Shown: in pieces, positions 679 to 16,743 of the stretch
Layout: the number at the start of each line of letters is the position of its first letter
Numbering within the stretch: position 1 is the stretch's first letter
DNA from: Marinobacter sp.
GTDB lineage: Bacteria; Pseudomonadota; Gammaproteobacteria; Pseudomonadales; Oleiphilaceae
NCBI RefSeq assembly: GCF_048259445.1
Contig: NZ_JBLXHQ010000005.1
Coordinates: 84,933 to 148,932, forward strand
Length of the DNA: 64,000 nt
Direction of reading: 5' to 3'
Made by a program: the position numbers and the translations under genes
The notes under the pieces: generated by a model
Databases searched by the model: none
Told to the model about the DNA's origin: nothing
Seen by the model: the letters and a program-made list of their open reading frames with translations, nothing else

Positions 679-1020
679 ATGACGAAGAATAAACACAAGT
701 GTATTTCTTTAGACACCTACCGACGCCGAAAAAAACTTGTGGCGTTGGCTGCGGAGTGGGAAAAGAGCCTTCCAGGACCATCAACGAGCTACCCTCACCT
801 GGTATTTTTGTATCCGGAGGAGCTTGCCACGCATAAAAGAGAACTACTGTTCAAGCGACTGGAAGCGGCTGCCAGAACGAACGGACAGACGCTCGTGATT
901 TCGGACTGTCATTACAGCCGTGCTGGATTCTATGTCGTGTATGAGGAAATTGGAGAAGCGAGACCAGGCGCTGTGGACATTGACGGGATTATCGACGACT
1001 GGAGTGAACGGGACCGATGA
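679..1020 (+). CDS. Hypothetical protein (113 aa)
   Basis: ORF preceded by GAAAGG about 8 nt upstream. No recognisable motif. Confidence 0.35.
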   Translation: MTKNKHKCISLDTYRRRKKLVALAAEWEKSLPGPSTSYPHLVFLYPEELATHKRELLFKRLEAAARTNGQTLVISDCHYSRAGFYVVYEEIGEARPGAVDIDGIIDDWSERDR

Positions 1021-1050: not shown

Positions 1051-1225
1051 GTAAGCGCCAATAAACCAGCACCTACACGCTAGCCCCGAGATTGCCCAAA
1101 CTGACTTCCTCACCAACAGCAGAGGAAATCAGTATGGCGCATACTCAGCGAGCACAAGGCTGGCATCAGCGTATCACGGACTGGCAGGCGTCCGGCCTTT
1201 CCGGCATGGCCTACTGCAAGCAACC
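1051..1225 (+). mobile_element. IS66-family end fragment (terminal repeat GTAAGCGCC plus first ~30 codons of orf1/tnpA)
   Basis: Starts with GTAAGCGCC. It aligns by eye to the reverse complement of 3247 downwards, including an identical block of about 46 nt (CAGCGTATCACGGACTGGCAGGCGTCCGGCCTTTCCGGCATGGCCT). It encodes MAHTQRAQGWHQRITDWQASGLSGMAYCK and then the similarity stops. Confidence 0.6.
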
Positions 1226-1379
1226 TCGGATTGCCGTTCAGGGCTAAAACAAATCCGGATCGTTTTCTCTGGCAGTTTTGTCACCAACTCCCTAAATCTC
1301 CGCCAAGCTTTGTTGTTACTGAGCAGAGTCTACAACTGCTATAGTTCAAAAATTGCCAACTACCCCCAAGGTTAAGAAA

Positions 1380-1811
1380 ATGACCAGATTGATTTCATTC
1401 ATGCTTTTGATGATGCCAACCGTCGCGTTTTCAGAAACTTACCTTTGCTTGTCTGAGAAAGGGGCTGTTGTAACGTACAACCATAAAGGAGCTGTTAGCA
1501 GCCAAGTCGCTAATGTTGCAAATCGAAAATATATCCTCACAAATGAAAGTGGCTCGTGGCAGGTGAAAGGAGTGCCTTCAGGAGAGGTTATATTCTATCT
1601 TTGCGACGAACATGGAATGCTCTGCAGGAAATCGGAAACTAGCCTAGATTATTTTAATCACTTAGGCTTTACCAACGGCGGCGATGTGTTCGTTGCTCAT
1701 CACTCTATTTTCACATCTGAAGGCAAGGGTAAAAATGCAGAAAATCTTACCATAGATGATGTTCGCATCATAAAATTGACAGAATCGGGGGCATGCACAA
1801 AGGTAAACTAG
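1380..1811 (+). CDS. Secreted Cys-containing hypothetical protein
   Basis: The internal ATG at 1380 gives MTRLISFMLLMMPTVAFSETY, a signal-peptide-like N-terminus. There are several Cys residues and no known motif. Confidence 0.45.
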   Translation: MTRLISFMLLMMPTVAFSETYLCLSEKGAVVTYNHKGAVSSQVANVANRKYILTNESGSWQVKGVPSGEVIFYLCDEHGMLCRKSETSLDYFNHLGFTNGGDVFVAHHSIFTSEGKGKNAENLTIDDVRIIKLTESGACTKVN

Positions 1812-1859
1812 TCCATACTTTCAGAGTATCGTAAGCGCCGTTAAATCGACATACTTGCG

Positions 1860-2543
1860 CTAATCGTTCTGAGCCACTTCTTTTGAACCCGGCAGTTCAG
1901 CGTTCCAGGGCAACAGCATTTCCAGTTTTTCAAGACTGTCCGCTTCGGCAATGTGTTTCAGCATATCGTAGATGTAAGCGGAGGGCTCCAGATTGTTCGC
2001 CTTGGCCGTTTCGATCAGCGAGTAACAGGTGGCACTGGCGTTTGCGCCTTGTGACGTATCGGCGAACAGCCAAGCCTTGCGTCCCACTGCGAAGGGCCGG
2101 ATGGCGTTTTCGGCCAGTACATTACTGATGTGCAGGTCATCGCGTTCGCAATAGCCCATCAGGGTGTCCCATTGGTTGAGGGTATAAACCATGGCCTTGT
2201 GAGTCAGCATACCCTTCACCACTTTGCTGACGTTTTTCTCCAGCCAGGTCTTGAAGGAGACCAGCAACGGCAGGCTCCGCACCCGATAGCGCTCGACATC
2301 GCTCAGATCTCGGGTAACCTTCTCGATGGCATACAGCTTCCGGATGTGGCTCAGAGCTACATCGGCTTTTGACGGCGAACCTTTCCTGCTCTTGGCCGGT
2401 GCGGCCCGAGCCGCTTCCACGAACTTGCGGCGAGCGTGATCCCAACAGCCAATCCGCGTCAGTTTGTTCTCGCGGCACACTTTCCCGTAACCAGAGTAGC
2501 CATCAGCTTGCAGGATACCCTGGAAGTCATCCAGCAGACGCAT
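1860..2543 (-). pseudogene. IS66 transposase TnpC, C-terminal portion only
   Basis: LLDDFQGILQADGYSGYGKV...IGCWDHARRKFVEA...NAIRPFAVGRKAWLF is typical of the IS66 TnpC C-terminal half. The N-terminal half is missing. Confidence 0.7.
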
Positions 2544-2853
2544 GGGTACCTTGCCACCGCGAGCCAGTTGATCTGCTCTCCAGTCAGCGACATCAGCTCA
2601 TCGGACGGACCTGGCCACTTGAACTTTTCCTCGGCCAAGGCTTTGTAATAGAGCACGAAACCGTTGTCTTCCCACATCAGGCACTTGACCTTGTTCCGCT
2701 GCCGGTTGGTGAAGGCGTAGAGGGCACCGGAGAACAGACTGTGTCCCAACTCCCGCTCAACAATCAGGGCCAAGCCGTTGGCCTGCTTGCGGAAATCAGA
2801 TACAGGTAGATCTCCGGCAGATCCCAGGACGGACGCAAGTATCGGTGTCGCAT
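2459..2853 (-). pseudogene. IS66 Orf2/TnpB, frameshifted and fused to the tnpC remnant
   Basis: MRHRYLRPSWDLPEIYLY lies in one frame and DFRKQANGLALIVERELGH...NRQRNKVKCLMWEDNGFVLYYK in another. The reading frame then runs into tnpC sequence. ATGA overlap with orf1 at 2851-2855. Confidence 0.6.
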
Positions 2854-3164
2854 CACAGTTGCCTCAGCACCGCGCCCAGCAATTCAATGTTGCCCGCACG
2901 CAAGCCGGTAATCGACACACCACCGGGCAGAGACACCCTTAGCCCATCGGATGTTCCTGAGTCGGGAGCCGCCGTCACGCTGGCAAATCCGGACGATGCA
3001 ACCTCGTTTAATTCAGGTACGCCGAGCGTCAGTTTCATTCGCCAATACACAAACTGGCAATAGGTCAGCGATTGTTTCTTGCAGGAGGCCATGCCGGAAA
3101 GGCCGGACGCCTGCCAGTCCGTGATACGCTGCTGCCAGATCTGTTCTCGTTGAGTGTGTACCAT
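2853..3164 (-). CDS. IS66 Orf1/TnpA-like protein
   Basis: MVHTQREQIWQQRITDWQASGLSG, starting from the internal ATG at 3162-3164. A paralogous fragment lies at 1134-1225. Confidence 0.6.
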   Translation of the reverse strand: MVHTQREQIWQQRITDWQASGLSGMASCKKQSLTYCQFVYWRMKLTLGVPELNEVASSGFASVTAAPDSGTSDGLRVSLPGGVSITGLRAGNIELLGAVLRQL

Positions 3165-3250
3165 GCTGATTTCCTCTACTATTGGCGAGGAAATCAGTGT
3201 CGGCAATCTTGGTGCTGGGGTGTAGCTGCTGGTTCATTGGCGCTTACAAT

Positions 3251-3877
3251 TTACCCAAAGACCAAGTCAGTTGGCTCTGAACCAAAACCGCGCTGCGAAT
3301 AGGAGATGTCGAGAGAACCCTCCACACCCAACTCGACTCGCAAACCACCCAGGTAATCCGGCCAGTCAGAAAGCTCCAACGGAAACTTCTGCAATCTGCT
3401 GGCAAGTGTGGCAACGATCGTGTCGTGCGTGACCCACAGGTGTATGCCGTCCTCAGACCGCGTTAGCCTCTCTTTGATGCTTCGCCCCATCTGCCCGACG
3501 GCCTGATCAAGGTCTTTAAAACCAGGCCAAGTTGAGGTGCCCGACAGTAGATGTTGGTTAACCGCGTCAACGCCTTGTTCAAGCCAATTCGTCCACGCCA
3601 ACTCGGCATCTTCGATAAAAAAACCTGGGTCGCCAAGTAAAGTGGACCGGCCTACCGAGTCGAGTGGAAAACCGTGGTGCCTGGCAACAATATCGGCTGT
3701 TTGGATGCAGCGTAGAATCGGACTGCTCTCAATAGACAGAACTTTCTGGCTCAGGGATTGGGCAAACCGAGTCGTTTGGTCAATACCGTTCTGTGTCAGT
3801 GCTAATTCGTCACCCACTGTTCCGTCTTCAATAGCAGGCCGTTCGGCGTGCCTTAGGATGAGAAGGGTTTTAGTCAT
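3251..3877 (-). CDS. Histidine phosphatase family protein (phosphoglycerate-mutase-like fold)
   Basis: LILRHAERP (RH catalytic motif) near the N-terminus and a later WVTHDT histidine. ATGA overlap with the upstream gene. Confidence 0.7.
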   Translation of the reverse strand: MTKTLLILRHAERPAIEDGTVGDELALTQNGIDQTTRFAQSLSQKVLSIESSPILRCIQTADIVARHHGFPLDSVGRSTLLGDPGFFIEDAELAWTNWLEQGVDAVNQHLLSGTSTWPGFKDLDQAVGQMGRSIKERLTRSEDGIHLWVTHDTIVATLASRLQKFPLELSDWPDYLGGLRVELGVEGSLDISYSQRGFGSEPTDLVFG

Positions 3878-5535
3878 GATATGACCCTACAGCGCAATAC
3901 GGACACTAGACTTGTCCCGGTGATTATCTCGGTGATTTCGAATCCTGCGCTAGTGAGAAGTGATGAGTAATGACCCTCGGACCTTTCTTGGCCTCCCGTA
4001 ACAGCCAGGAGATGCAGATCGCACAGCCCTCCGCCATATCCCGACTTTGGCAAAAGCATTTCGAAAACCAGTAACTCGCCTCCAGGGTTAAGTGCGGCTT
4101 GAGCGTTCCGAAGAATGGACACTACCTGTTCATCGTTCCAATCGTGGAGCACCCTGGCGAGCATTAGTTTATCAGCGCAGATTGGCCAGGCATTGAATAG
4201 GTCAAACGGTAGGTATTGAACGCCTTCATACAAATGCTGCTGAACAATTTCGGCTTTGTCTCCGCAATAAACATCAGCATCCGGGTGACATTTCTTTATC
4301 AGGGAGCTTAAGGTGCCGGTACCTCCAGCCGCATCGAAAACCACTTCACCGGCGCTGAACGTCAGCTCCGGAACGAGAGACTCATAATCGTGCATTGCGT
4401 AGCTCGCCAGCATCTGATGATGGCCGTGAATGCGAGCTTCGTCGTTGCTGATGTGGTCAAAAATATCCTGGTCAACCACCGCCCCTCTCAAAATCGCTGG
4501 TAGTTTTCCCCAACGTCGTAACAAATCACTTCCATATTCTTCAGGAGCTGAGACAAGGGTTTTCGGATGGTCGGATCGTAAATACTCGCCCTTTTCGGTC
4601 AGCACGTATTTATCCCGCACCAACCGAATAACACCTAGCTCCCCCAGGGCCCTGAGAAACCGCAGTAATCTATCGGGATGCATAGAAGTTGAGTCAGCAA
4701 GTTGCTGGTGATCGGCTGGCAGAAGATCAAATAACCTTAACTCTGTAGCCGCTTTTAAGCTCATCGTTCGCCAATAGCCCACCATATCGGCAGACAGCTC
4801 AGCAAAGTGATCAGCTGTTGGAGAGCGCAGGGTACGCAGTGTTGTTCCTTGCTCGTCAATAATGAGCAGCGCACCGTCCCAAGTCTCGACTCGAGCGCAA
4901 CCGTTATAAAACGGCTCGACATTCGCGTACCTCGCTTCGTATAGCGAGCACCCCGCCTTGGTTATGTGATACCACCCTTCCTCGTTGCGTGCCCTGGCAT
5001 AGCCTTTGTGAAACACATCAAGATCAATGAACCACTGCCCATGGATAAGCTGACCTGTGAAGGCGATGTGGGAACTCAGACCGTTTCGATGTTGGACGAC
5101 GGCGGAGCCCTCGCGAAAGTCTCCAGCATAAGACCATTTCGATGGATAAAGAGGCTCTCCCGCGAGATCTATATGGTAATAAGAACCTTCATGATCACAA
5201 ACCACGCAGACATCGCACTGGAAATTACCGACAAACGCATATCGGCTTTCGTACAGTGGGTTTCCATCTTGGTCGATGTGAAACCATGCACCCTCCGAAT
5301 TGACCGCTGCCGCTCCACAATAAAAGCCGAAAGCACGGTCATACCGCGCTGCGTATGCGTCCGTTCCGTCCGTGTGAACGTGCCACGAAGCCTTGTTTGC
5401 GTGCACCGGGGCCAACCCTGGCGAATGAAAAGGCAGCACTTGTTCATAACGGTGTCGGTAAATCGCCCTTCCCTGCGAATCAACATGGTGTGTCCCACAG
5501 GGGCTAACTTTGGGATAGTCCGCTGAGGCGCTCAC
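3874..5535 (-). CDS. WG-repeat domain fused to a class I SAM-dependent O-methyltransferase
   Basis: N-terminal half has repeated W(F/Y)HID..G.P.Y units (WFHIDQDGNPLY, YYHIDLAGEPLY, WYHITKAGCSLY). C-terminal half has a winged-helix dimerisation-like segment, then VFDAAGGTGTL (SAM motif I) and LARVLHDWND. The track ORF extends to a GTG at 5565, but the GTG at 5533-5535 gives a GTGA overlap with the upstream stop. Confidence 0.7.
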   Translation of the reverse strand: MSASADYPKVSPCGTHHVDSQGRAIYRHRYEQVLPFHSPGLAPVHANKASWHVHTDGTDAYAARYDRAFGFYCGAAAVNSEGAWFHIDQDGNPLYESRYAFVGNFQCDVCVVCDHEGSYYHIDLAGEPLYPSKWSYAGDFREGSAVVQHRNGLSSHIAFTGQLIHGQWFIDLDVFHKGYARARNEEGWYHITKAGCSLYEARYANVEPFYNGCARVETWDGALLIIDEQGTTLRTLRSPTADHFAELSADMVGYWRTMSLKAATELRLFDLLPADHQQLADSTSMHPDRLLRFLRALGELGVIRLVRDKYVLTEKGEYLRSDHPKTLVSAPEEYGSDLLRRWGKLPAILRGAVVDQDIFDHISNDEARIHGHHQMLASYAMHDYESLVPELTFSAGEVVFDAAGGTGTLSSLIKKCHPDADVYCGDKAEIVQQHLYEGVQYLPFDLFNAWPICADKLMLARVLHDWNDEQVVSILRNAQAALNPGGELLVFEMLLPKSGYGGGLCDLHLLAVTGGQERSEGHYSSLLTSAGFEITEIITGTSLVSVLRCRVIS

Positions 5536-6566
5536 GATGGGCGTCTCATGTTGCAGCTCTTGCACAAATCCAGGCTACGGTAGTTCCTGACAAGGTGCAC
5601 GTAATGATCGCCGTTGATCACTTCTTCAACTGACGTATCCACCAGGTTCCCAAAATCACCAAGAGACTTGCGCTGTTGGTCCGGGGCGCAGCAGACATTA
5701 AAACGCCCAGTCGGATCGACCCAGATCTCCTTGTTCAAAAATGGGCACTCTCCATCCGGCGCTATGTCATCAAGATTCGCCAGATCGAGTTTGAAAAAGT
5801 TGTCCAATCGGGGTGCGTGGCCACCTAATGTTTCCTGCTCTGCGACAAATGCCTGGCACTCGTCTACGACCCGGTTCCATTGAGTGGCGTAAACGATATC
5901 ATTCCGCAGGCTTTGGGCTTCCAATTCAGGAAAGTGAGCCCAGAGCTGATGACCTTTGACACGGTCAAAGCCCATGGAGGCTGCCAAACGAACCATATCT
6001 GGAATTTCATGCAGATTCTGGCGCATGAAGGTGAGCTGCATTGTCACGGAGCAGTAGTTGCTATTGGCCAGTTCATCCCTGACGGCAATGAATCGCTCGG
6101 CTTTTTCAATGTGTTCTTCCAGGTCTGCGCCAAGCATGATGTCTCGGTGGGTTTCTGAGGTCGCTCCGTTCCAGCTGATTTTCACATCACTGCCGACGGG
6201 CACGATGCGCCTCGCCCAATGCTCAACACTCTGATGTTTTTGGGGCCCTGGAAAGGTTCCGTTTGTCGTCAGATTGAGTTTCAGGCCCAGCTCATTGCAC
6301 AGCTCCAGGAACAACTCGAAATGTGGGTATAGCAGCGGCTCTCCCATCGTCGAGGGAATAATCTCGCAGAAACCAAGTCCGGCTACTTCCCTGACCACTT
6401 TTTCCAACAGTCCCTTATCCATAATGGGACGCAACCTGCCTTGGGCACTACGCGTTGTCCGGTCGTCACCGTACGGAGAATGGTCTTCGCACATGACGCA
6501 TTTAAGGTTGCAAAAATCCGGATTGGTATCGAGCGTCGCTCGCCAAAATGCTGGTTCTAAACTCAA
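5532..6566 (-). CDS. Radical SAM protein with C-terminal SPASM/twitch-like cysteine cluster
   Basis: CNLKCVMC (CX3CX2C) at about residue 19. C-terminal segment is CPFL...NVCCAPD...CKSCN. TTG start overlaps the upstream stop (TTGA). Confidence 0.75.
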   Translation of the reverse strand: MSLEPAFWRATLDTNPDFCNLKCVMCEDHSPYGDDRTTRSAQGRLRPIMDKGLLEKVVREVAGLGFCEIIPSTMGEPLLYPHFELFLELCNELGLKLNLTTNGTFPGPQKHQSVEHWARRIVPVGSDVKISWNGATSETHRDIMLGADLEEHIEKAERFIAVRDELANSNYCSVTMQLTFMRQNLHEIPDMVRLAASMGFDRVKGHQLWAHFPELEAQSLRNDIVYATQWNRVVDECQAFVAEQETLGGHAPRLDNFFKLDLANLDDIAPDGECPFLNKEIWVDPTGRFNVCCAPDQQRKSLGDFGNLVDTSVEEVINGDHYVHLVRNYRSLDLCKSCNMRRPS

Positions 6567-7858
6567 TTCATAACTCGCTTGTATTGCTGTTCCAAGTCAA
6601 TGACGTGCTTTTGTATGCAGGGAATATCTCCATCATCGCTGAATAAATAGCCCCGCTCCCCAAGGCTCCGGGCCCACGCAGGGTTCTTTACGAGACGCTG
6701 CATCTGGTGGGATAGATCTGCAACCTCTCGATGCTTATAGAGAAGTCCATTAACCTCGTGGTGGACATATTCGCCCATGCCACCGGCGTCAGCCGTGATC
6801 ACCGGAACCCTGGCTTGCTGAGCCTCATGGATCACCAGCGGCGAGTTCTCAACCCAGATAGACGGTGTAACGATTGCGTCGGTTCTATCGAAGACATCTT
6901 TCGTAATTTGCTGATTCTTGTATTCCGGCATCCAATGAATCCGGGCCTGCTTTTCAGCAGGGAGCGTGTCGGCAATTGCCCTCAATGCCCTACTATCCTG
7001 GCCTCTGTCTCGTCCCCAAATTCGCAGCTGGCAGTCTCCTTCCACCCCGCCGAACGCTTGAATCAACTGATGGATGCCTTTCGCCGGTATATGCGTGCCG
7101 ATGTAGCCAAATGTGAAAGGCTCATCTGCCGTCCGCTGGCGATCAACCATTCTGCCTCGATCGAAACCGTAGTCGAGATATATGCTCTTTGATTTTGGCA
7201 GCCCAAAATCTTCTTCATATCTCGTTTTTAGGTATCGGGACGGAGAAATGAAGAGATCCACCTGATCGACGACATCACGGACATGCGCCATGCGTCGCCC
7301 AACCCAATTCTCCCAATAGGCAATGTCCCGCTCGAACTCATCCTCTGCCCCCGAAAAATATCGTGCGTAACATTGCGTCGCACATTTTCTGTTCTCCTGA
7401 CCATCACAAGCAGCCCAAAGATTGTCGTCTTCCGAATGCATTTGCATAAACTGGCCGCGAGGACACATCAACCAATAATCATGCAGGGTATAGACGACCG
7501 GAACGTCGCGGCGCTTCGCTTCAAACACCAGCGACGTTGATAAGTGGTTCAAATGCCCGATGTGGACGACATCCGGCTGAAGCTCATCAAGCAGTTCAGT
7601 GAAACGTTGGTCAATTACCGACAGTCTGTATCGATCACGGTGGCGTGGATTGTTCACCAGATGGATCTTAATAGCCGGTCTATCCTGGTCTAAGTCCTGC
7701 CGGATCGCCCCGTCAGGCTTGAAGGAATCTTCCTCTCTGGTAAAGACATGAACCTCGTGACCTCGATCAGCAAGCGCATGGCAAATCGTCTGTGAGTAAA
7801 CTTCAGAGCCCGCGTTGTAGAGCATCGGATAGCCATGGATTACTTTGAGAATCTTCAT
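6563..7858 (-). CDS. Glycosyltransferase, GT4-like (GT-B fold)
   Basis: N-terminal YNAGSEVYSQTICHALADRGHEVHVFT and C-terminal PSIWVENSPLVIHEAQQARVPVITADAGGMGEYV...NGLLY (E-x7-E-type region). Confidence 0.75.
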   Translation of the reverse strand: MKILKVIHGYPMLYNAGSEVYSQTICHALADRGHEVHVFTREEDSFKPDGAIRQDLDQDRPAIKIHLVNNPRHRDRYRLSVIDQRFTELLDELQPDVVHIGHLNHLSTSLVFEAKRRDVPVVYTLHDYWLMCPRGQFMQMHSEDDNLWAACDGQENRKCATQCYARYFSGAEDEFERDIAYWENWVGRRMAHVRDVVDQVDLFISPSRYLKTRYEEDFGLPKSKSIYLDYGFDRGRMVDRQRTADEPFTFGYIGTHIPAKGIHQLIQAFGGVEGDCQLRIWGRDRGQDSRALRAIADTLPAEKQARIHWMPEYKNQQITKDVFDRTDAIVTPSIWVENSPLVIHEAQQARVPVITADAGGMGEYVHHEVNGLLYKHREVADLSHQMQRLVKNPAWARSLGERGYLFSDDGDIPCIQKHVIDLEQQYKRVMN

Positions 7859-8757
7859 ACAGTCTCAATCAATGAAGTGTTGGTTTTGAATGCTCTTACC
7901 AAGGCGCAGATTCCTTCAGTCGGGGTGATTGTGGCCTCCCAACCCAGCAATCTTTTAGCGCGCTCAGGGTTGCCTATGAAACGAGCCACATCATAAGTAC
8001 GCGATGGTCCGGCATAAATGGTCGAATCTGAACTGGCAGCATCAACCGCTATTTTGGCTGCTTCCAACAAAGTCGTCCCCATTCCTGGTAGCAAATGGAT
8101 CGGAGGCAAATAGCGCTCATTAGCTTCGAGCACCGCTACAATCCGGGCAATTCCCCTAACTGTGTCGTCGACATGAGTGAAATCGAAAAGGTGGTTAAAG
8201 CCGTCCACCCTTAGTGGTCGGCCCTCGGCAGCATTTCGACAAAAAGCAGGTAAAACGCGGTCTTCGTGATCCTCAATGCAACCGTACACATTAGCTAGGC
8301 GCACGATGGCTGTGTTCAAGCCTGTATCCCGAGCTTCAAAAGCGTATTGCTCCATTTTAGCTTTGGCTCGTCCATAGATATTGACAGGGCAAACAGGAGC
8401 TTCCTCAGACACTGGAAGCAATTCGGGCTCCCCGTAGACCTCTCGACTACTGGCAAATAGCACCCAGGGCTTCCTTGTGAGCTTCGAGGCCTGCTCAAGA
8501 ATCGCAAGACTAGCTACGGCATTTGTTTCCCAGCAAAGAGACGGATTCTGCTCGCCCCATACAACTCTGGACACTGCGGCAAGGTGAACCACCCCAATAA
8601 CGTCTGAGATAGCGGGACAAATATCCTCTGACCGAGTGATGTCGCCACTGTTGTCCGATATATCCAGCCCAATAACCTCGTAACCCAAATTTATAAGTAA
8701 TGGAACGAGATGTCGCCCGATAAGACCACGGTGACCAGTCACTAGAATTTTTTTCAT
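7855..8757 (-). CDS. NAD-dependent epimerase/dehydratase (extended SDR)
   Basis: KILVTGHRGLIGRHL (TGxxGxxG) and YGRAK (YxxxK). Confidence 0.8.
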   Translation of the reverse strand: MKKILVTGHRGLIGRHLVPLLINLGYEVIGLDISDNSGDITRSEDICPAISDVIGVVHLAAVSRVVWGEQNPSLCWETNAVASLAILEQASKLTRKPWVLFASSREVYGEPELLPVSEEAPVCPVNIYGRAKAKMEQYAFEARDTGLNTAIVRLANVYGCIEDHEDRVLPAFCRNAAEGRPLRVDGFNHLFDFTHVDDTVRGIARIVAVLEANERYLPPIHLLPGMGTTLLEAAKIAVDAASSDSTIYAGPSRTYDVARFIGNPERAKRLLGWEATITPTEGICALVRAFKTNTSLIETV

Positions 8758-9089
8758 TGATGTACAGCCTTACCTTGCAGTTGCGCAGGATCAGGAATCT
8801 CGGAATGAAGAACTATCAAATTGACGTGCAATTATTCCGTGGCGTTTGGAAAATCGAAGTTTCACCGTGATGGAATGCGGATAAAGCTGAGACTGTTTTT
8901 TGCTTCATTGACGATATCTTGCTGTCCTTGAGCCTTCCAACAGAACACTGGATTAAGTCGCGTCCCGCCTACTGAAAAAAACTAATGGAGTAATGTACTG
9001 AATTACATAGATTTCGTCTATTGTGAATAGGCCGAGCAGCACTCCGACATGCGGCCATTTCGCTCAAATGGATTTTGCTTTTTTCATTC

Positions 9090-9695
9090 TCATAGAAGCT
9101 TGCTGTTGATGTCGGCCTTTTCCAGAGCCCGTTTCATTTTTACCCGGTATTTGTCGGGTGTTCCGCCATATTCATTCGCGAGGTCGACGTAACTCCAGCC
9201 GGAAAGTGACTGTTTTATAAGGGTAATATCCTCATAATTCAAACCTCTGCTGGAGAGTAGTGCATCAACCCGCTCAGCATCGAGCTGCGCTAGATTCATT
9301 TCCAGTTCCATGTGCTGATCCCAGAAATCTGAGCTGTCGGGTCGGTCAGAACCAAACACATGACGAGCCCTGCTGCCCAGTTTTCCCTTCTCGTTTTCAT
9401 GAGACCACCGCGTCAAACGTGTGTTGCAGTATGACTCAACAGCGGTATAGAGGTATTTCGATACTGGGTGTTTGAGTATCTCCTCATCAGGTACAGCTTC
9501 TTCGAGTTGAAGACCGGAAGTTTTGTTTTCACGCGCTTGAAACAGTGCTCGAATTGAATCTCCAAGCGCATCTTCCGCAACTTGCCGGACCTCAGATCCC
9601 AGGATATGCCCCAGTTTCTTTCTGGTAATCCGAAGTGCCATGGCTTTAACCCTGGGGTCTATCGCCACCCTTCCAATTTCGATATCAGTGAGCAT
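9090..9695 (-). CDS. Divergent sigma-70/ECF-like protein (region 2-like and region 4-like segments)
   Basis: AEDALGDSIRALFQ...YLYTAVESYCNTRLTRW resembles ECF region 2. LSGWSYVDLANEYGGTPDKYRVKMKRALEKA resembles a region 4 HTH. Strong SD (AAGGGGAGG) 7 nt before the ATG. Confidence 0.4.
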   Translation of the reverse strand: MLTDIEIGRVAIDPRVKAMALRITRKKLGHILGSEVRQVAEDALGDSIRALFQARENKTSGLQLEEAVPDEEILKHPVSKYLYTAVESYCNTRLTRWSHENEKGKLGSRARHVFGSDRPDSSDFWDQHMELEMNLAQLDAERVDALLSSRGLNYEDITLIKQSLSGWSYVDLANEYGGTPDKYRVKMKRALEKADINSKLL

Positions 9696-9752
9696 TTCGA
9701 ACCTCCCCTTTGTCGAACTTCAAGTCTCATTTAGAGAGCTAAAAACCCCAAA

Positions 9753-9772
9753 TTACAAAATGTTACAAAATA
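9753..9772 (+). repeat. Tandem decamers TTACAAAATG / TTACAAAATA in the putative right end (possible TnsB sites)
   Basis: Direct tandem repeat read in the sequence. The following AGTCTTAAA recalls the Tn7 TnsB-site core as I remember it. Confidence 0.35.
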
Positions 9773-9975
9773 GTCTTAAAGCAGATTTGAGAAAAATATC
9801 TGTTTTTTTAACAGATCCTTGTTCGGTTTTCCTCAACTAATTAGTTATTTACGAATAAGCGCCCCAACGTAAGATTTAATTTAATGGAAATTAAATAAGA
9901 AAAACAACGTGTTACCGAGTTGACGGGGATTTTTTTGCGGTATTGAATTACCCCCACTGATCAAGGAATAGCCAG

Positions 9976-10584
9976 ATGGAAAACCGAAAATTAGCAAAAC
10001 AGTCACCCTACAGAAATTCTTACATGAGCCGGGCTGTCAAAACGAATTGTGCGCTGGCCTTTGAGAGTGCACTGGAGCGGGATTATTTTCATCTGCTCGA
10101 ATTCGATGAACGGGTCAGCTTTTTTGAGGCGCAGCACGAGACTACTCATTATCAGCTCGGTGAAAAAGACGCGAGGTATACACCTGATTTCTTTGTTGTT
10201 CAGGATGGCGTTGCTTTCGTGGATGAGGTCAAACCTTTCTATAAGACACTCGATCCTGAATTTCAGAGAACAGTTCGCCGATTCACAAAGTTGTTCTTAG
10301 ACAAGGGATTTCACTACCGGGTTATTACAGAGAAAGAGATCTATTCCGGTGAAAGACACCACAATCTTCGGTTTTTACATCCCAAGCTTGGGGATGCACC
10401 TCCACATCAGGAATTTGAGCAGCTCTGCCAGACTCTGACTGAACGGCAATTTGTTGTTTCTGAACTTCAGGAAATTCTGCCACAGCATGGGCTTTCGCCT
10501 TGCCTGGTCAGTCGGGCTGTCGCTCATCGATTAATGCAAGCTGATCTGACGAATCATTGGCCTTCAATCGTTGCGCATTGGTAA
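9976..10584 (+). CDS. tnsA: TnsA-like transposition endonuclease
   Basis: ESALERDYFHLLEFD...YTPDFFVV...FVDEVKP gives the E...D...K restriction-endonuclease-like triad in TnsA order. Confidence 0.85.
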   Translation: MENRKLAKQSPYRNSYMSRAVKTNCALAFESALERDYFHLLEFDERVSFFEAQHETTHYQLGEKDARYTPDFFVVQDGVAFVDEVKPFYKTLDPEFQRTVRRFTKLFLDKGFHYRVITEKEIYSGERHHNLRFLHPKLGDAPPHQEFEQLCQTLTERQFVVSELQEILPQHGLSPCLVSRAVAHRLMQADLTNHWPSIVAHW

Positions 10585-12586
10585 CGAATTTAATCACCAA
10601 ATCAATTTAACTGTCAGGAGCAAACCTTTGATCAATCCATCGATTCACCAGCCAGGCACACGAGTCTCATTTCATGGCTTAAGTGGAACATTGACTCCAT
10701 TGGCCCAAAACATGATTGCGATTGTAATGGATCGAGATCCGGCGACGCCTGTCTGCATTTCGGTTGAGGAAGCTGAGAGGCGACTCCACAAAGAGTTGCT
10801 TTTTCTGACAACAAAGTCTCAAAACAATCTCATCGACATGGAGCTGAGCAGCAGGCAGCTTCTCTATCTTCAAAAGGTTAACGCGTATTTAGATCAGCTT
10901 TGGAAAGTCGTTCCAAAAGGTAAAACGGGCGGCGTTGCAAAGCGAGCAGCCGTGATCAAGTTTGTCAGTCAGTTGATCGGAGACAGCAACCCGCCTGACC
11001 CATCTACGCTCGCACGATGGGTGGCGACAGCCAATTCTCATAGCCAAGGCGTGCTTGCGACATTGCCATCCAATAATCGCGTTGGTGGCTCGAAATTTGG
11101 AGAAGATGTGAAGGACCTTTTTATTGCGGTCGTCAAGGAGCACTTCCTTAATTTACGTCGGCCACCAAGAACGAAAGCCTATGCGGTTTTCGTTGAGAGA
11201 CTAGAGCAAGAACTTAAGCGATCGGAAACATCTGAGATCCCGAACTATGGCACTTTTTGCAACTGGATCAAGAAACTTGATCCGTCAGAGGTTGCTGAAA
11301 AAAGGGTCGGGAAGCTTGCAGCAAAGTCACTGAGCCGCAACGCCTCTAAAAAGATCGTTTTGAACCGCATTCTTGAGCGGGTGGAAGTCGATGCTTTGAG
11401 AACTGGAGTTGCCGTTACTGATGAACAGAAACGATATCTTGGAAACGTAATTCTCTTTCTGGTGATTGATTGCTTTTCGAGGGCGATCCTCGGCTTTCAG
11501 CTTCAGATCGGAGGAGGTGAATTGGCGGCATCCGTCATTGACTCGTACAAGCACTCGTTAATGCCAAAGCATTCAGAAGAAGTGGACCCTTCAATCAAAA
11601 ACCCCTGGCCAATGTATGGTGTTCCTGAGCAGATTGTAAGTGATGGTGGCCCTGGTTATGCAGCTCTAAAAACGCAATCGTTTCTGCTTCATGCTGGTAT
11701 CGCTTCGACGATGGTCCAGACATATAGCGGCGAAAAGAAACCGTTCATTGAGAGTTTCAATAAAACGATTAGACTCCAATGCCTAACAGATATCCCAGGC
11801 TACACTCCGAAAAACCCGAAAGACCAGCCATTGGATGCAACGATCGGCCAACAGGCTGTCATTACTCTCGATACGCTGAAACGCAAAATCACGAAGTGGA
11901 TCGTGGACGATTATCATCAGGAGCCACATGACGGCCTCCTGGGTAGAACGCCATCTCAGGTATGGACAGAAAACGCAAAGCTTTTCCCACCCGCCGTGCC
12001 AGCAGGCCTGTTCTCACAGCTAAGCATGACCCATGGCGAAACCAAAACACCGAAAATCATGGGTCCGGATGGACACCTTGGCATCGTCGTCGAAAACGTT
12101 GAATACAACGATCACGGCAAAAGGTTGAAGTCCATTCATAATCAGCTCAAACAGCTTGGAGAAGAGCCACGCGTGACCTGTGAATACACGCCTAATGATA
12201 TTCATACAGCGACTGTTAGAGACCCCATTACTGAGGAGCGTTTTCAGGTCTTTGCGAAAGATCCCCGGATTCTGCCAGGCATGACTTCGGCGGAATGGAA
12301 CGCTATTCGTCTGGAAAATAAACCAAAACGACAGGTTAGACGATCGAGCCTGGCCAACGATCAAGAACTAGCGAAGGCACATAAGCAAAACAAAAAACAG
12401 ATTGCCGCCTCGAGCAAAAGGAAACAAGCCACGGCAAATCTCTCCGAGATCACTGAAGGCATGCGTGAGCTAGGCAATCTGAGACCGGAACAACCGACGG
12501 ATATCGCTGCGAGTGAAAGCTTCGGTACTGCTTTTGACCGCCTGTTTAATGATGATTCTGACGAAGAGGGCTTCGATTGTGTCTAA
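10571..12586 (+). CDS. tnsB: TnsB-like DDE (Mu/rve-type) transposase
   Basis: LVIDCFSRAILGF (D), VSDGGPGY (D), ESFNKTIR (E). The track start at 10571 is TTG. A TTG at 10628 has a better SD (AGGAG, 7-nt spacer). Confidence 0.9.
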   Translation: MRIGNEFNHQINLTVRSKPLINPSIHQPGTRVSFHGLSGTLTPLAQNMIAIVMDRDPATPVCISVEEAERRLHKELLFLTTKSQNNLIDMELSSRQLLYLQKVNAYLDQLWKVVPKGKTGGVAKRAAVIKFVSQLIGDSNPPDPSTLARWVATANSHSQGVLATLPSNNRVGGSKFGEDVKDLFIAVVKEHFLNLRRPPRTKAYAVFVERLEQELKRSETSEIPNYGTFCNWIKKLDPSEVAEKRVGKLAAKSLSRNASKKIVLNRILERVEVDALRTGVAVTDEQKRYLGNVILFLVIDCFSRAILGFQLQIGGGELAASVIDSYKHSLMPKHSEEVDPSIKNPWPMYGVPEQIVSDGGPGYAALKTQSFLLHAGIASTMVQTYSGEKKPFIESFNKTIRLQCLTDIPGYTPKNPKDQPLDATIGQQAVITLDTLKRKITKWIVDDYHQEPHDGLLGRTPSQVWTENAKLFPPAVPAGLFSQLSMTHGETKTPKIMGPDGHLGIVVENVEYNDHGKRLKSIHNQLKQLGEEPRVTCEYTPNDIHTATVRDPITEERFQVFAKDPRILPGMTSAEWNAIRLENKPKRQVRRSSLANDQELAKAHKQNKKQIAASSKRKQATANLSEITEGMRELGNLRPEQPTDIAASESFGTAFDRLFNDDSDEEGFDCV

Positions 12587-12590
12587 GTCA

Positions 12591-13550
12591 ATGAATACGG
12601 CCGAATTGGCTAATCTTTATGAGTCAATTGACGACGTTGGGCAGAAAGAGGTCACAAAACGAATTCAGGATGCGGCGATCCTGCATCCGGAGTTTAAAAA
12701 GGCTATGAGAGCGATCCGCTACGCGCACTCTATGCACGGCTCGAAAGAAGCTGGAATGATCCTGACGGGATTAACAGGCACAGGTAAGTCAACGGCCGTC
12801 CAGACCTATATCGACGCTTATTTGGCAAGCCGCCCCGACCTCGAAACCGATGAGCTTACGAAGCTTCCGATTTTGAAGGTCAAGCTTACAGGTCGCCCTA
12901 CCTATAAGGGACTGCATAAGCAGATTCTCCTGGCGGCGGATCACGTTAAGGTATCCGGTGACAGCACCGATCTCTACGAGTGCATTAAAACAATGGTTAC
13001 AGAACAAGGTGTGGAAATGCTCATTATTGATGAGTTCCAGCACCTCTTGAGTGAGCAAGCCCGTATCTCAACGAGAGATGTTCTGAACCTAATCAAAAAT
13101 CTTATGGATGATTGCAGATTCACGTGTTTGCTCGCAGGTCTACCAGAAGGATTAGAAGCTTTTGTAAAGCATGATGAGCTTCGCCAGCGCTTTGCAATGA
13201 ACCGGTTTCAACTCAATCCTTTTTCCATTAAGGATCAGGCCTCTATTCAGGAGTTCAAAAAGTATCTGGAGGTTTACGACAAAAAGCTCAAGGAAGAAGG
13301 CATTCGGAGTATTTCTCTAGCATCAAAGTTCATGCTTCCTCGAATCTACCTGGCAACACTTGGCCTACCTCGGGCCATCATTGGGCTTATTTCGAGCACA
13401 TTGGATCTCAACGACATTGGAGTGCCTCTTACAAAGCATCATTATGCGAAAGGCTACTCGCGTATTTTTCTTGACAATGATCTCACCTCAACATTCAACC
13501 CTTTCCTGTCTCAGGACGTCGCCGTTTTCAAAAGATTAGAGGAGCAATAA
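12591..13550 (+). CDS. tnsC: TnsC-like AAA+ ATPase
   Basis: GLTGTGKST (Walker A) and MLIIDEFQHL (Walker B). The ATG at 12591 lies just after the tnsB stop. Confidence 0.85.
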   Translation: MNTAELANLYESIDDVGQKEVTKRIQDAAILHPEFKKAMRAIRYAHSMHGSKEAGMILTGLTGTGKSTAVQTYIDAYLASRPDLETDELTKLPILKVKLTGRPTYKGLHKQILLAADHVKVSGDSTDLYECIKTMVTEQGVEMLIIDEFQHLLSEQARISTRDVLNLIKNLMDDCRFTCLLAGLPEGLEAFVKHDELRQRFAMNRFQLNPFSIKDQASIQEFKKYLEVYDKKLKEEGIRSISLASKFMLPRIYLATLGLPRAIIGLISSTLDLNDIGVPLTKHHYAKGYSRIFLDNDLTSTFNPFLSQDVAVFKRLEEQ

Positions 13551-15067
13551 TGCGATTCGGTGTCAGGCCCTTCCCTGAAGGCATGGAAAGTCTTGCCGGT
13601 TATTTAGTTCGTCTTGGAAGACGCAATGGACTCGCGTCGTTGCAAGAAGTCGTTGGGCTATGTGACTCCCGCTTGAGTGCAAAAGCTAGGCCGGATAAAT
13701 GGGGTGCCGGACATTGCAATAGGATTTGTGAGGGCTTGGCGCTTAGGTTGGGGCGGGACAGTAAGCAGATTATTGACCATTTCCAATATGAACTTGTGCT
13801 GGCACAATCTGTCGATCCGCTTCGAATGATCAAGAATTTGAAAACAGGCATGCCGCGCATTTGCACGTGCTGTACATCTAAAAACGGGTTTATGGATTGG
13901 CGATGGGGCCTTGGACACCTAGCCCACTGTCAGGAGCATGGTACGCCTCTCGTCGATTGTTGCCCGAGTTGTGGCAACGAATTGTCGTGGAAGCCAGAGC
14001 TGCTGGAACGCTGCCCTTCCTGCAAAATCACATGGAGTGAGGCTGCTCAAAAGAAACAACCCATTTCAAACCTGGAAATGACGCTATGGTCTGAGGCAGT
14101 TGATGGCCACCTGGGAGATGCCGAACTTCTCCGTGAGATTTCTTCATCGATGGTTCTGATGGCTCGCCCATTTGATTCAGCGCTAGACCCAATCAACGGA
14201 GTACCGCTGACCCCGAACCTCTGGCAGCTCACCGCCTCAGCGTATACCTTTCTCGCAGCTAAGAAGTACCAAAAGACGTTAATGAAGGAGAGGTCCAAAC
14301 GAAAGGCCTTGCCTGGCATCGCTAACGACCTGTCACAAAGGCTGTCTTTGATCCCCCCGATGAAAAGCGCCAACAAAAGGCTCCCCGTTTGCCCAGAAAC
14401 TGCACTTGAAATGCACGCTGAGAGCGGGCGGATGGAATTTGTCACCGCTAAAAGAAAGGCTATCAACGGAAACGGCTCAGACGCGGCGCTGGAAAACCAC
14501 ATTACCGCCTCTTCCCTATCTTCTGCGCTGGGTATTTCCATGAGGGAGTTGCGATGGAGCATTGAGGCTCAATGCATGACGGCCCTCAATGACACTCAAG
14601 TCATCAGACAGAAGGTTTTTGACATCCGGGATCTGGCAACCTTGCCGACGATCCAAGATGAAAAGCTCGAACACCAACCTACGACTATTGTGGAAATGAG
14701 TGATTTGAGGCTAGACCGGCACCTGACAGGCTTTGGGCGCTTGCTTGCAAAGGTCTGGGGCCGTGAGCTTTGCGGCTACTTGTTCTGGGACAATAACCTT
14801 CCAAAGATTGTAGTCGACGAGACACATTTCTTAGGGTGGTTAAGTGAAGAACTTGAGGTGCACTGCACTCAAAACGTCGAATGCTATCTAGCGATGGCGG
14901 CTTTGCACTGTGGCAAAAGTAAACTGATGTCCCTTGTCGCAGCCGGAGAACTCGAGTGCATTGACTGGGAAAGCGGAGGGCGAGATCAAATCACCGGGCG
15001 ATCATTTTTTTGCTACGTGCGAAAGCTGTACGCACTGGAGCCACCAGTCATCCCTGGGAATACCTGA
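13550..15067 (+). CDS. tniQ: TniQ/TnsD-like target-selection protein
   Basis: N-terminal PFPEGMESLAGYLVRLGRRNGL (TniQ signature) and a Cys4 zinc ribbon CPSCGNEL...CPSCK. The start overlaps the tnsC stop (TAATG). Confidence 0.8.
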   Translation: MRFGVRPFPEGMESLAGYLVRLGRRNGLASLQEVVGLCDSRLSAKARPDKWGAGHCNRICEGLALRLGRDSKQIIDHFQYELVLAQSVDPLRMIKNLKTGMPRICTCCTSKNGFMDWRWGLGHLAHCQEHGTPLVDCCPSCGNELSWKPELLERCPSCKITWSEAAQKKQPISNLEMTLWSEAVDGHLGDAELLREISSSMVLMARPFDSALDPINGVPLTPNLWQLTASAYTFLAAKKYQKTLMKERSKRKALPGIANDLSQRLSLIPPMKSANKRLPVCPETALEMHAESGRMEFVTAKRKAINGNGSDAALENHITASSLSSALGISMRELRWSIEAQCMTALNDTQVIRQKVFDIRDLATLPTIQDEKLEHQPTTIVEMSDLRLDRHLTGFGRLLAKVWGRELCGYLFWDNNLPKIVVDETHFLGWLSEELEVHCTQNVECYLAMAALHCGKSKLMSLVAAGELECIDWESGGRDQITGRSFFCYVRKLYALEPPVIPGNT

Positions 15068-15331
15068 AAACATTGGTTACTTAGAGAAGAGCGCAAAAGA
15101 TGCGAATATTTGGCTGCCAGGGCGATTGAGCGGGCCAGAACTAGCGCAGAGGTAGGTTATTACGATCTCTTAGGCGACCAAAACTCCCTATGCACACCGG
15201 CACCAAAGCGGCAGTCGCTCCGGCGGGGAAAGCGTAAGCTTCTGATACTAAATAACCTTCGGTCCAACCATCTCTTGCTCTCCCCGTGATTCGTTTTATA
15301 CGCTGACTCGTGGAACCTTACTTGCTATGAG

Positions 15332-15674
15332 CTACAGTACCACTGCCTTTAACCAATGTTCAAAAGAAGATCCTAGTGCGACCACACCATTACCCCAACC
15401 AGAAAGGAGCTGCCACCCGACGGCAAGGTAATACGGGTTGTATGGCGCTTCTCTACTTTCATACAGTTCACGATCACTCAGAGAAGTTGCCAATATCGGC
15501 TGGGTCAAGTTTCTCCATTTTCCGGAAGCCCTCCTTCCCAATCGCTTTGAGTCTTTCAGGGGCAACCCGAAACTTACCTCTAAGTGGAGTTTTTTTAGAA
15601 GCCACATTACGATTATCGTTTGGGATTTCCCGAACCAAATTTCTTTCTTTCATTGCCATCACCAACTCTGCCAT
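15332..15674 (-). pseudogene. Small hypothetical gene apparently split by a 1-nt frameshift
   Basis: The 66-aa ORF 15474-15674 ends at TGA. The adjacent frame continues as SDRELYESREAPYNPYYLAVGWQLLSGWGNGVV down to 15332. No family recognised. Confidence 0.25.
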
Positions 15675-16090
15675 ATCCCCGAGTATAGCTTAAAAATTAA
15701 CCTACTAGTCCAATTGGCAGAGCAAAAGTCGCATCGTAGTCTTGGGTTGAAGCGCGCTTGGCGAAAGTCAATTTGTTGGACGGACACTCAAGGCCAGTTG
15801 TAGCAATGCAATGATCGCCTTGATCACAAATATTCTGTGCGACACATGGATTGACGCTACTGCCTATCGCTGATAGATTCCAAACTCAACTTGATCACGG
15901 CCTTTAGGGTCTGATAGTGGCATTCACGAAAGATATCCCGTCCGGGGTTCTTCGAGGCTGGCAGCCTTTGTCGCTAGATGTCAGTGATAGCTGCATGGTG
16001 ATTGTAAATTGGGGATCAACCTTCAGGGTGGTCCGGTTCGTATTCGGGGAGCCATAGCCCGACATACGGCATCAATTTATAGGTGCCACC

Positions 16091-16486: not shown

Positions 16487-16525
16487 GCTTTACCCGTTTG
16501 CTGTAAACAACTGTCAGGTCAGTCT

Positions 16526-16563
16526 GATCGGCGCTGCGTGTCCAGCGCCTGATCTTTGTTGTT
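16526..16563 (+). terminator. Intrinsic terminator after the nuclease-fold gene
   Basis: GATCGGCGCTG-cgtgtc-CAGCGCCTGATC stem with one bulge, followed by TTTGTTGTT. Confidence 0.5.
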
Positions 16564-16674
16564 CAGTTTCTTGACTGTCGGCCATCGACCAGGTCTTTAG
16601 GGTACAGCAACCTGATATAGCCTCTATCACTCCGAATTTTCCAGGTTATAACGGTTAGAAATTCTGGGCTTCCG

Positions 16675-16724: not shown

Positions 16725-16743
16725 AATATTCTTTGAACACCCC

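Follow-up and report, generated by a model that had tools for sequence, protein, structure and literature searches.

A compact five-gene glycosyltransferase and radical SAM cassette beside a Tn7-like transposition module of Marinobacter is related to the Undecim Cluster core of phage WO

Introduction

The genes WD0612-WD0614 of phage WO belong to the 'Undecim Cluster' (PMC9203015). Their products are expressed in Wolbachia, and a KWG/O-methyltransferase (OMT) fusion and synteny in a few free-living bacteria have already been remarked on (PMC4701759). The literature on R. buchneri describes an 'aminoglycoside antibiotic (AGAB) synthesis/resistance' gene array (PMC9111745). Here we analyse a related block on the minus strand of a 64,000-nt stretch of DNA from Marinobacter sp. 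(the whole stretch is henceforth the window), in which a short-chain dehydrogenase/reductase (SDR), a GT4 glycosyltransferase, a radical S-adenosylmethionine enzyme (rSAM), a WG-repeat/OMT fusion protein and a histidine phosphatase (HisPhos) are encoded in tandem next to a Tn7-like transposition module. The AGAB array is probably the homologue of WD0612-0618 on pREIS2.

A preliminary description, made from the letters of the window, had read these five genes and a sigma-like gene ahead of them as one mobile unit with its own transcription factor. That description is largely correct except for its 'dedicated sigma' and 'Tn7 end' parts, and what the cassette adds to a known, uncharacterised gene set is a new and compact version.

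Results

Five enzyme genes form a conserved unit

The window contains six co-directional minus-strand open reading frames (ORFs; Table 1), with the sigma-like and SDR genes 332 nt apart and with 4-nt start/stop overlaps at all four junctions between the enzyme genes (ATGA at 7855-7858, TTGA at 6563-6566, GTGA at 5532-5535 and ATGA at 3874-3877). Pfam matched the five enzyme domain assignments of the preliminary description, and catalytic motifs are intact in all five enzymes. No transmembrane-like segment was found in any of the six proteins; the five cassette enzymes are soluble.

We counted gene neighbourhoods in 80 cassette loci from many phyla, retrieved via the rSAM. GT4 lies directly upstream of the rSAM in 79 of them (47-77% identity), a WG-repeat ORF follows the rSAM in all 80, a histidine phosphatase comes after the WG/OMT position in 60, and an SDR gene is upstream-adjacent to GT4 in 37. 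Dozens of genomes preserve both the gene order and the short overlaps, and for the five enzyme genes the notion of one co-inherited, tightly coupled unit holds. It does not extend to all six genes, since the 201-aa sigma-like gene is present at none of the 80 loci. The invariant core is GT4, the Twitch/SPASM rSAM and the WG-repeat module.

Relatives of the rSAM number in the thousands. With one genome taken per species, at least 570 species carry one, at ~50% identity across phyla, and the carriers, many of which are marine, include Gammaproteobacteria, Myxococcota, Dehalococcoidia/SAR202, Planctomycetota, Bacteroidota, Legionella, Rickettsia and one archaeon. Integrases lie near the cassette in seven loci and a UDP-glucose 6-dehydrogenase gene neighbours it in eight. 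Viral contigs with the cassette, phage WO aside, are rare (5 of 2.9 million), and no plasmid DNA near-identical to the block was found.

The enzyme functions are tied together by three independent gene fusions: GT4::rSAM in phage WO, Rickettsia and Arsenophonus, WG::OMT in the window, and WG::HisPhos in two loci (L025 and L045). PHROG 21308, a GT4::rSAM fusion, was matched at E values of 4e-135 (by GT4, over PHROG positions 1-403) and 1e-59. About 14 loci have the WG module alone, without an OMT, and some of these have a carbamoyltransferase or a WG domain fused to the phosphatase; OMT and carbamoyltransferase are alternative tailoring enzymes. The two WG::HisPhos loci (L025:4860-6140 and L045:4771-6114) share the order WG::HisPhos, carbamoyltransferase, SDR, GT4, rSAM, and a sigma-54-dependent AAA+ activator is transcribed divergently.

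The preliminary description had argued that the block is neither an O-antigen or capsule locus nor a standard cluster for a ribosomally synthesized and post-translationally modified peptide (RiPP), and both points were borne out. Pfam confirmed that the block has no flippase, polymerase or export gene; Wzx/Wzy/Wzz, an ABC exporter and an undecaprenyl-phosphate (Und-P) initiating transferase are absent from the window, and in the neighbourhoods of the 80 loci neither a wzx/wzy/wzz nor a glycan-export family turns up repeatedly. The window also has no RiPP recognition element (RRE) and no detectable precursor ORF. A small ORF family does occur elsewhere: in 13 taxonomically distant loci (L023, L030, L032, L033, L037, L040, L041, L044, L048, L050, L052, L057 and L066) the cassette is immediately preceded, on its own strand, by an ORF of 45-65 aa (consensus DNRANQLNPxHPAYHxSRGASPEEAQRLA). 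The family is not detectable in the window, is absent from ~85% of loci and has no Pfam family; its members may be substrate peptides, regulators or immunity factors.

The cassette resembles the core of the Undecim Cluster

By tblastn, the window SDR, GT4, rSAM and WG/OMT proteins are 42, 49, 46 and 31% identical (the last over the full length) to WD0612-WD0614, in the same order, and the phage WO records hold an SDR, a GT/rSAM fusion and a 'hypothetical' protein of 531 aa. The two sets thus share homologous SDR, GT4, rSAM and WG/OMT genes and a mobile context, and on this resemblance we describe the window cassette as the free-living five-gene variant of the Undecim SDR / GT::rSAM / WG-OMT core (WD0612-0614). 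They differ in several respects. GT4 and rSAM are one protein in the WO, Rickettsia and Arsenophonus copies, whereas in the window they are separate genes joined by the TTGA overlap; the window has a histidine phosphatase, which Undecim-type copies lack. Those copies carry additional genes for a PhyH dioxygenase, an ABC exporter, two PLP aldolases, transporters, a UDP-Glc dehydrogenase and a GlmU-like NTP-transferase, and none of UC1 and UC5-UC11 of the Undecim Cluster (WD0611-WD0621) is found in the window block. The setting differs as well, being the eukaryotic association module (EAM) of prophage WO in one case and a Tn7-like, defence-associated element in the Marinobacter window in the other.

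WO-type copies are also found on Rickettsia plasmids (pREIS2 and pRA1) and on Arsenophonus plasmids. The latter, CP132904.1 (L121) and two sibling plasmids of ~20 kb from louse-fly Arsenophonus, carry SDR, GT::rSAM, WG/methyltransferase, PhyH and aldolase genes beside panBCE, which extends the known insect-symbiont host range of the WO-type cluster.

Table 1. Features of the cassette and its surroundings in the window.
Feature	Position	Strand	Remarks
IS66-family element: tnpA, tnpB, truncated tnpC	1051..3247		inverted repeats GTAAGCGCCAAT
Histidine phosphatase (branch 1), 208 aa	3251..3877	-	last cassette gene; Pfam His_Phos_1
WG (KWG) beta-repeat / O-methyltransferase fusion, 553 aa	3874..5535	-	WG part a core component; Pfam WG_beta_rep + Dimerisation + Methyltransf_2
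Radical SAM protein, C-terminal Twitch/SPASM-type Cys domain, 344 aa, TTG start	5532..6566	-	core gene; Pfam Radical_SAM + SPASM
GT4 (GT-B, retaining-type) glycosyltransferase, 431 aa	6563..7858	-	core gene; Pfam Glycos_transf_1 + Glyco_transf_4
Extended SDR, NDP-sugar epimerase/dehydratase/decarboxylase type, 300 aa	7855..8757	-	first cassette gene; Pfam Epimerase
Cassette leader/promoter region, 332 nt	8758..9089	-	carries invariant 15-nt block ATTCAGTACATTACT at 8989-9003
Divergent ECF-like sigma / HTH protein, 201 aa	9090..9695	-	accessory gene of Tn7-like element
Conserved tnsA-proximal intergenic region including ACAAAATGTTACAAAATAG	9753..9975		alignment of five diverged copies
Tn7-like transposition module: tnsA-like, tnsB (rve), TniB-type tnsC, tniQ	9976..15067	+	Pfam Tn7_TnsA-like_N, rve/rve_3, TniB, TniQ

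Features of the five enzymes

The SDR (Pfam Epimerase, 8e-42) shows the motifs GxxGxxG (residue 8) and YxxxK (residue 128), and its best Protein Data Bank (PDB) match is the UDP-glucose 4-epimerase 4zrm (8e-27), followed by UDP-glucuronate decarboxylases. TunA (3vps) is only its 26th PDB match, and with nothing further in support we set aside a tunicamycin-like cluster (TunA/B/D/M/G). GT4 matches Glycos_transf_1 (2e-24) and Glyco_transf_4 (5e-22), lies above the cut-off of PF20706 GT4-conflict (1e-12) and has an EX7E motif at residue 337. Its best PDB match is 6kih, Tll1590 (1e-11), presumably a cyanobacterial sucrose-phosphate synthase, and its NCBIfam matches to BshA, MshA and SPS are weak, far under the family cut-offs.

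The rSAM has no N-terminal extension, as the preliminary description had noted; it carries CX3CX2C at residues 19-26 and additional invariant cysteines at 90, 172, 274, 292, 293, 335 and 338. Translation from the TTG codon adds 24 residues, among them the invariant W8, R9 and D13-D17 together with the first two cysteines of CX3CX2C, and because these residues are invariant across the family we consider this start correct. Internal-ATG gene calls (320 aa, P0001) drop them, and the TTG-start protein has no exact database record because gene callers choose the internal ATG. In a Foldseek search with an AlphaFold2 (AF2) model (pLDDT 89), SuiB, anSME, BlsE, SkfB, DesII, PqqE and viperin were found at TM ~0.6-0.65; the model fits the SPASM/Twitch group overall, with peptide modifiers and sugar/nucleoside modifiers at similar TM. 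The sole phmmer match in the PDB was PqqE (8e-4), and the best NCBIfam matches are protein/peptide maturases (W_rSAM_matur and ScmF). BtrN ranked 39th with Foldseek, and since 2-deoxy-scyllo-inosose (DOI) synthase and aminotransferase genes are absent too, we rejected a BtrN-like aminoglycoside (2-deoxystreptamine) logic.

In the WG/OMT protein (Methyltransf_2, 6e-25), the N-terminal WG domain takes up ~230 aa, and the OMT part has a SAM motif (DAAGGTG, residue 401) and an HDW motif (residue 464); an alternative GTG start at 5565 marks the limit of the longest ORF. The best PDB matches of the OMT are AlpH, CalO6, MmcR and DnrK-type OMTs, which are of the aromatic natural-product type. A lead to DtpM (PDB neighbours 8rdg/8rdm) proved irrelevant, as it concerns xenorhabdin N-methylation. 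The phosphatase matches His_Phos_1 (5e-11) and has the motifs RHA (residue 9) and THD (residue 150). It is 8 aa longer at the C-terminus than in a near-identical contig (L001; window 3251-3274): a TAG codon of L001 is GAG in the window, where the phosphatase stops at a TAA inside the target-site duplication (TSD) of the IS66-family element.

The cassette is also a mosaic. From tnsA to ~5200 (5200-10573) the window is 99-100% identical to TARA ocean contigs, and identity to these contigs falls to 87-94% at 3374-5200 (OMT domain and phosphatase); the drop near 5200 suggests a recombination breakpoint inside the WG/OMT gene.

The sigma-like gene tracks the Tn7-like element

The 201-aa protein has no Pfam, NCBIfam or PADLOC match of its own; NCBI annotates it as hypothetical, and two close homologues carry the JGI label 'sigma24 family'. 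A profile search gave 75 representatives and a family alignment of 48 members, of which 19 match Sigma70_r4_2 (best 2.6e-6), 11 Sigma70_r4 and five Sigma70_r2 (best 3.5e-3). The family profile matched SigD region 4 and RpoH in the PDB at ~5e-3, and hhalign to region 4 of an approximate E. coli RpoE sequence gave a probability of 59%. With an AF2 model (pLDDT 71), Foldseek ranked extracytoplasmic function (ECF) sigmas first, albeit weakly (E 0.1-0.5, TM 0.22-0.30). The earlier sigma-70/ECF-like assignment is therefore upheld for region 4 at the family level, with region 2 weak, and 'divergent ECF-like sigma' appears a fair description. ECF (group 4) sigma-70 factors share with the protein a size of ~200 aa in two helical domains, a region-4-type helix-turn-helix (HTH) and the top fold matches. 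The protein differs from them in that region 2 is found in 5 of 48 relatives, no candidate anti-sigma ORF is adjacent among the window ORFs, and the gene is fixed beside tnsA of a Tn7-like element.

Homologues of the sigma-like gene (34-100% identity) lie ~280 bp from tnsA and divergent from it in 29 of the 29 contigs long enough to tell, and all of them belong to a single Tn7-like family (tnsA / tnsB / TniB-type tnsC / tniQ). The arrangement was seen in loci L091-L120 and at 9090-15067 of the window, and in the literature searched we found no description of an ECF-like sigma beside tnsA in Tn7-like elements. About 17-19 of these contigs lack the cassette and have other, mostly defence-type cargo. 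In L095, ~7.5 kb of other genes separate the sigma-like gene from the cassette. With the gene tracking tnsA and not the cassette, the view of it as the cassette's own dedicated transcription factor had to be abandoned, and it is instead a standing accessory gene of the Tn7-like transposon. The protein may drive transcription into whatever cargo is present; a conserved ECF-like sigma gene that sits beside tnsA and faces the cargo suggests transposon-encoded expression of whatever cargo is acquired.

The leader upstream of the SDR gene contains a 15-nt block that is identical in 13 of 13 Tn7-linked loci and absent from loci without the sigma gene. In L095 it stays with the cassette, at a distance from the sigma gene. 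The block may be a promoter for the sigma-like protein. The leader matched no Rfam family, and scans of the region returned no strong sigma-70 promoter, no terminator and no tRNA. The idea that the 15-nt block encodes the small-ORF motif described above found no support in HMM searches and was dropped.

The cassette probably occupies a variable slot

In sibling elements the sigma-like gene and a 113-aa gene on the far side (window 679-1020) bracket variable cargo. The alternatives to the cassette are ParE-like / Xre / DUF2971, CTD7-MC3-LmuB_C (Lamassu-like), DUF3584 with DUF7281 (SMC-like), a 1284-aa ATPase, AAA_15/21, an HSDR_N nuclease, and UvrD with a lipase. By this synteny, the cassette would be one of several alternative occupants of a variable, defence-rich slot faced by the sigma-like gene. 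Tn7-like transposons with defence cargo were reportedly described by Benler et al. in 2021. The window element has the same tnsA/tnsB/TniB-type tnsC/tniQ module and variable, defence-rich cargo, and differs from these known carriers in that the variable cargo is tnsA-proximal, behind a conserved sigma-like gene, and in that no terminal repeats were found.

The earlier placement of an end of this element 16 nt ahead of the sigma start is not supported: the TGT at 9711 is in the ribosome-binding-site region and reads TCT in the closest diverged copy (L097). In an alignment of five copies, conservation runs to ~9753, at ACAAAATGTTACAAAATAG, which resembles Tn7 TnsB-site motifs, and then falls. 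K-mer and mismatch searches found no inverted copy of the 9711 or 9753-9790 sequence in the window. Comparisons of the TniQ-distal with the sigma-side flanks, and of the tnsA-sigma intergenic region with the TniQ-distal flank in 12 loci, gave no convincing pair of inverted repeats.

On the other side, the IS66-family element is flanked by an 8-bp TSD, AATTTACC, at 1043-1050 and 3248-3255, which includes the phosphatase stop codon. The element does adjoin the last gene, at a distance of 3 nt past the final base of the stop codon rather than 4. Because contig L001 is its uninterrupted empty site, this copy is a late secondary insertion and no unit boundary, and with a Tn7 end between tnsA and sigma unsupported as well, the first idea of a block 'wedged between two mobile elements' is not supported. 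The inverted repeats and TSD of the IS66-family copy are intact; its tnpC is truncated (227 aa), and an unrelated 152-aa signal-peptide-like ORF lies at 1353-1811.

Beyond tniQ, an ORF-poor stretch of 3 kb (15067-18237) leads to the core gene selO (18237-20015). It holds a 131-aa PDDEXK_5-like ORF (16091-16486), whose homologues are on the opposite side of the element in L095, and a serine-recombinase fragment (~16744-17007), which suggests rearrangement or decay at the tniQ-distal end.

Cassettes recur in defence and mobile contexts

Apart from the transposon slot, the cassette is found in defence islands, in prophage WO and on endosymbiont plasmids, and the mobile context claimed for the block is thereby supported. 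In a Thalassolituus-like bacterium, Pseudoalteromonas, Psychrobium, Celerinatantimonas and a Pseudomonadales metagenome-assembled genome it lies on one strand between hsdM-hsdS and hsdR, and hsdR begins 0-19 nt past the HisPhos stop in those five genera. Three more loci are near hsdR, at ~700 nt (L011), via YgjP (L012) or via a 413-aa gene (L026). In the Thalassolituus-type type I restriction-modification (R-M) operon (L007:1454-7451), the space from hsdS to hsdR is occupied in turn by SMODS+SLATT_6, McrBC and the cassette, which makes it a compact island of several systems. Positions within type I R-M operons or defence islands are frequent for the cassette in marine gammaproteobacteria.

Defence associations were counted in the gammaproteobacterial/CFB subset of the loci. 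The 121 nearest neighbours (at most four per side, 19 loci) include ~10 type I restriction endonucleases, seven methyltransferases, four S subunits and five YgjP proteins, with McrBC, SLATT_6 and MADS-like matches as well. As raw, uncorrected counts, the defence content near the cassette is far above ordinary gene content. Our literature search found nothing relevant on WG-repeat or rSAM plus glycosyltransferase defence systems, and as far as the literature searched shows, the association of the cassette with defence islands is new.

Discussion

All five proteins being soluble, we expect the product to be a small cytoplasmic or diffusible glycoside and not a surface polymer, and from the defence islands, cargo slots, prophage WO and symbiont plasmids in which the genes reside we propose that this product serves in inter-genomic conflict, as an antiviral or antimicrobial metabolite. 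We give about even weight to this reading as a whole, namely that a five-gene enzymatic cassette, self-contained and horizontally mobile, spans 3251-8757 and makes a small tailored glycoside used in conflict. From the chemistry of the domains, a pathway of six steps can be drawn. The SDR would make an unusual NDP-sugar, possibly derived from UDP-glucuronate, which GT4 would move onto a small and probably phosphorylated acceptor. The rSAM would then oxidise, rearrange or decarboxylate the glycoside by radical chemistry; the OMT, or in other variants the carbamoyltransferase, would cap a hydroxyl, and the histidine phosphatase would take the phosphate off. The WG domain, fused to the OMT or to the phosphatase, may be a shared module that binds a substrate or partner.

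Parts of this scheme have counterparts in described systems. Small glycosides are made by synthase/phosphatase pairs such as SPS/SPP, MshA/MshA2 and GpgS/GpgP, in which GpgP is a histidine phosphatase. A GT4-type synthase followed by a dedicated phosphatase is common to these pairs and the window, whereas the rSAM, WG and OMT steps have no counterpart there. The same synthase/phosphatase logic in the preliminary description is plausible, given the recurrence of the phosphatase, the WG::HisPhos fusion variant and the intact EX7E motif of GT4 and RHA motif of the phosphatase. Pathways to sugar or nucleoside antibiotics combine glycosyltransferase and rSAM steps, as in blasticidin S (BlsD/BlsE), butirosin (BtrM/BtrN) and desosamine (DesII). 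The window resembles them in the pairing of a glycosyltransferase with a Twitch/SPASM-type rSAM, which would work on a small glycoside or NDP-sugar, and in its natural-product-type OMT, and the sugar/nucleoside rSAMs BlsE, DesII and viperin are among the top structural neighbours of the window rSAM. The window has, however, no 2-deoxy-scyllo-inosose synthase, aminotransferase, cytosine-forming hydrolase or resistance gene, and it is not a member of these pathways at the sequence level. To the prokaryotic viperins (pVips) the likeness is that of an rSAM in defence islands with a modified small molecule as the candidate product, and the pVip model matches the rSAM weakly (3e-7). The window rSAM is nevertheless no viperin, given its SPASM/Twitch domain and its different conserved residues, and it is accompanied by four further enzymes where pVips act as one.

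Several observations weigh against a conflict glycoside. The peptide modifiers SuiB, anSME and SkfB are equally good structural neighbours of the rSAM, and a peptide substrate is conceivable given the small ORF that precedes the cassette in 13 loci. Loci in Myxococcota and Dehalococcoidia have no obvious defence neighbours, and the endosymbiont versions adjoin nutritional or host-interaction genes, not defence genes. PADLOC-DB 2.0 has no model for the cassette, only the weak pVip match of the rSAM and one to mad2 (4.5e-4), so the defence role rests on guilt by association. As the terminal repeats of the transposon were not located, the 'cargo' status derives from comparative synteny.

The alternative that survives best, though we think it unlikely, is a RiPP-like or maturase system in which rSAM and GT4 would have a ribosomal peptide, or the WG-repeat protein itself, as their substrate and would yield a cross-linked, oxidised or glycosylated peptide or protein. 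Such a system would fit the SuiB, anSME, SkfB and PqqE folds among the top Foldseek neighbours of the rSAM, its W_rSAM_matur and ScmF matches, the constant presence of a WG protein and the small ORF family directly upstream on the same strand, but the ORF is missing from the window and most loci, and the rSAM has neither an RRE nor an N-terminal extension. No protease or leader-processing gene is found, the OMT is of the small-molecule natural-product type, and phosphatase, SDR, UDP-Glc dehydrogenase and carbamoyltransferase suit small-molecule sugar chemistry.

Modification of a cell-surface glycan (LPS, EPS, capsule or glycoprotein) that alters phage adsorption or host interaction, akin to a seroconversion module borne by a transposon or prophage, seems improbable. 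SDR and GT4 are typical of glycan loci, and mobile elements often carry receptor-modifying genes. Moreover, the Wolbachia literature suggests EPS/LPS roles for WD0611-0613 (PMC9203015, PMC4701759). Yet all five proteins are soluble, and Wzx/Wzy/Wzz, an ABC glycan exporter, an Und-P initiating glycosyltransferase and a Gtr-type membrane protein are neither in the window nor recurrent in the 80 loci. Judging by the OMT type, the acceptor would be an aromatic or enolic small molecule, and to our knowledge Wolbachia has no LPS.

We attach as little credence to a nucleic-acid modification coupled to type I restriction, in which a sugar-containing or methylated DNA or RNA mark would serve as a self mark or effector. 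Multi-enzyme DNA modification with rSAM steps has precedents (Dpd/7-deazaguanine), and the placement of the cassette between hsdS and hsdR in five genera, with hsdR close behind the phosphatase, and within one or two genes of hsdR in L011, L012 and L026, speaks for such a coupling. However, most loci, those of the window, WO, Rickettsia and Myxococcota included, have no adjacent R-M genes, no DNA-binding, base-flipping or transglycosylase domain was detected, and unrelated defence genes are known to accumulate in hsdS-hsdR gaps, as the McrBC and SMODS/SLATT genes of L007 do.

Equally doubtful is a housekeeping or stress metabolite, a methylated glycoside osmolyte for marine life made by synthase/phosphatase logic like that of sucrose-phosphate or glucosylglycerate: the pairing of GT4 with HisPhos, the Tll1590 match, the weak BshA, MshA and SPS matches and the many marine hosts speak for it, but the distribution is patchy and suggestive of horizontal transfer across phyla at ~50% identity, the genes reside in transposon cargo, prophage, plasmids and defence islands, obligate intracellular symbionts carry it too, and rSAM and natural-product OMT steps are atypical of osmolytes.

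Returning to the conflict glycoside, the trio of GT4, rSAM and WG module spans hundreds of species, free-living marine bacteria as well as Wolbachia, Rickettsia and Arsenophonus, and its compact five-gene form in R-M operons and transposon cargo offers a testable conflict-metabolite hypothesis. Marinobacter and its relatives are a culturable entry to the chemistry of the Undecim Cluster, since Wolbachia is not open to genetics. A bolder version, which we advance only tentatively, is that the cassette is a widespread multi-enzyme 'chemical' immunity system, mobilised between phyla by transposons, type I R-M islands, prophage WO and symbiont plasmids, whose tailored glycoside or nucleoside-like metabolite blocks the replication of phages or competitors. 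If this is true, the core of the Wolbachia Undecim Cluster would carry out the same antiviral or antimicrobial chemistry.

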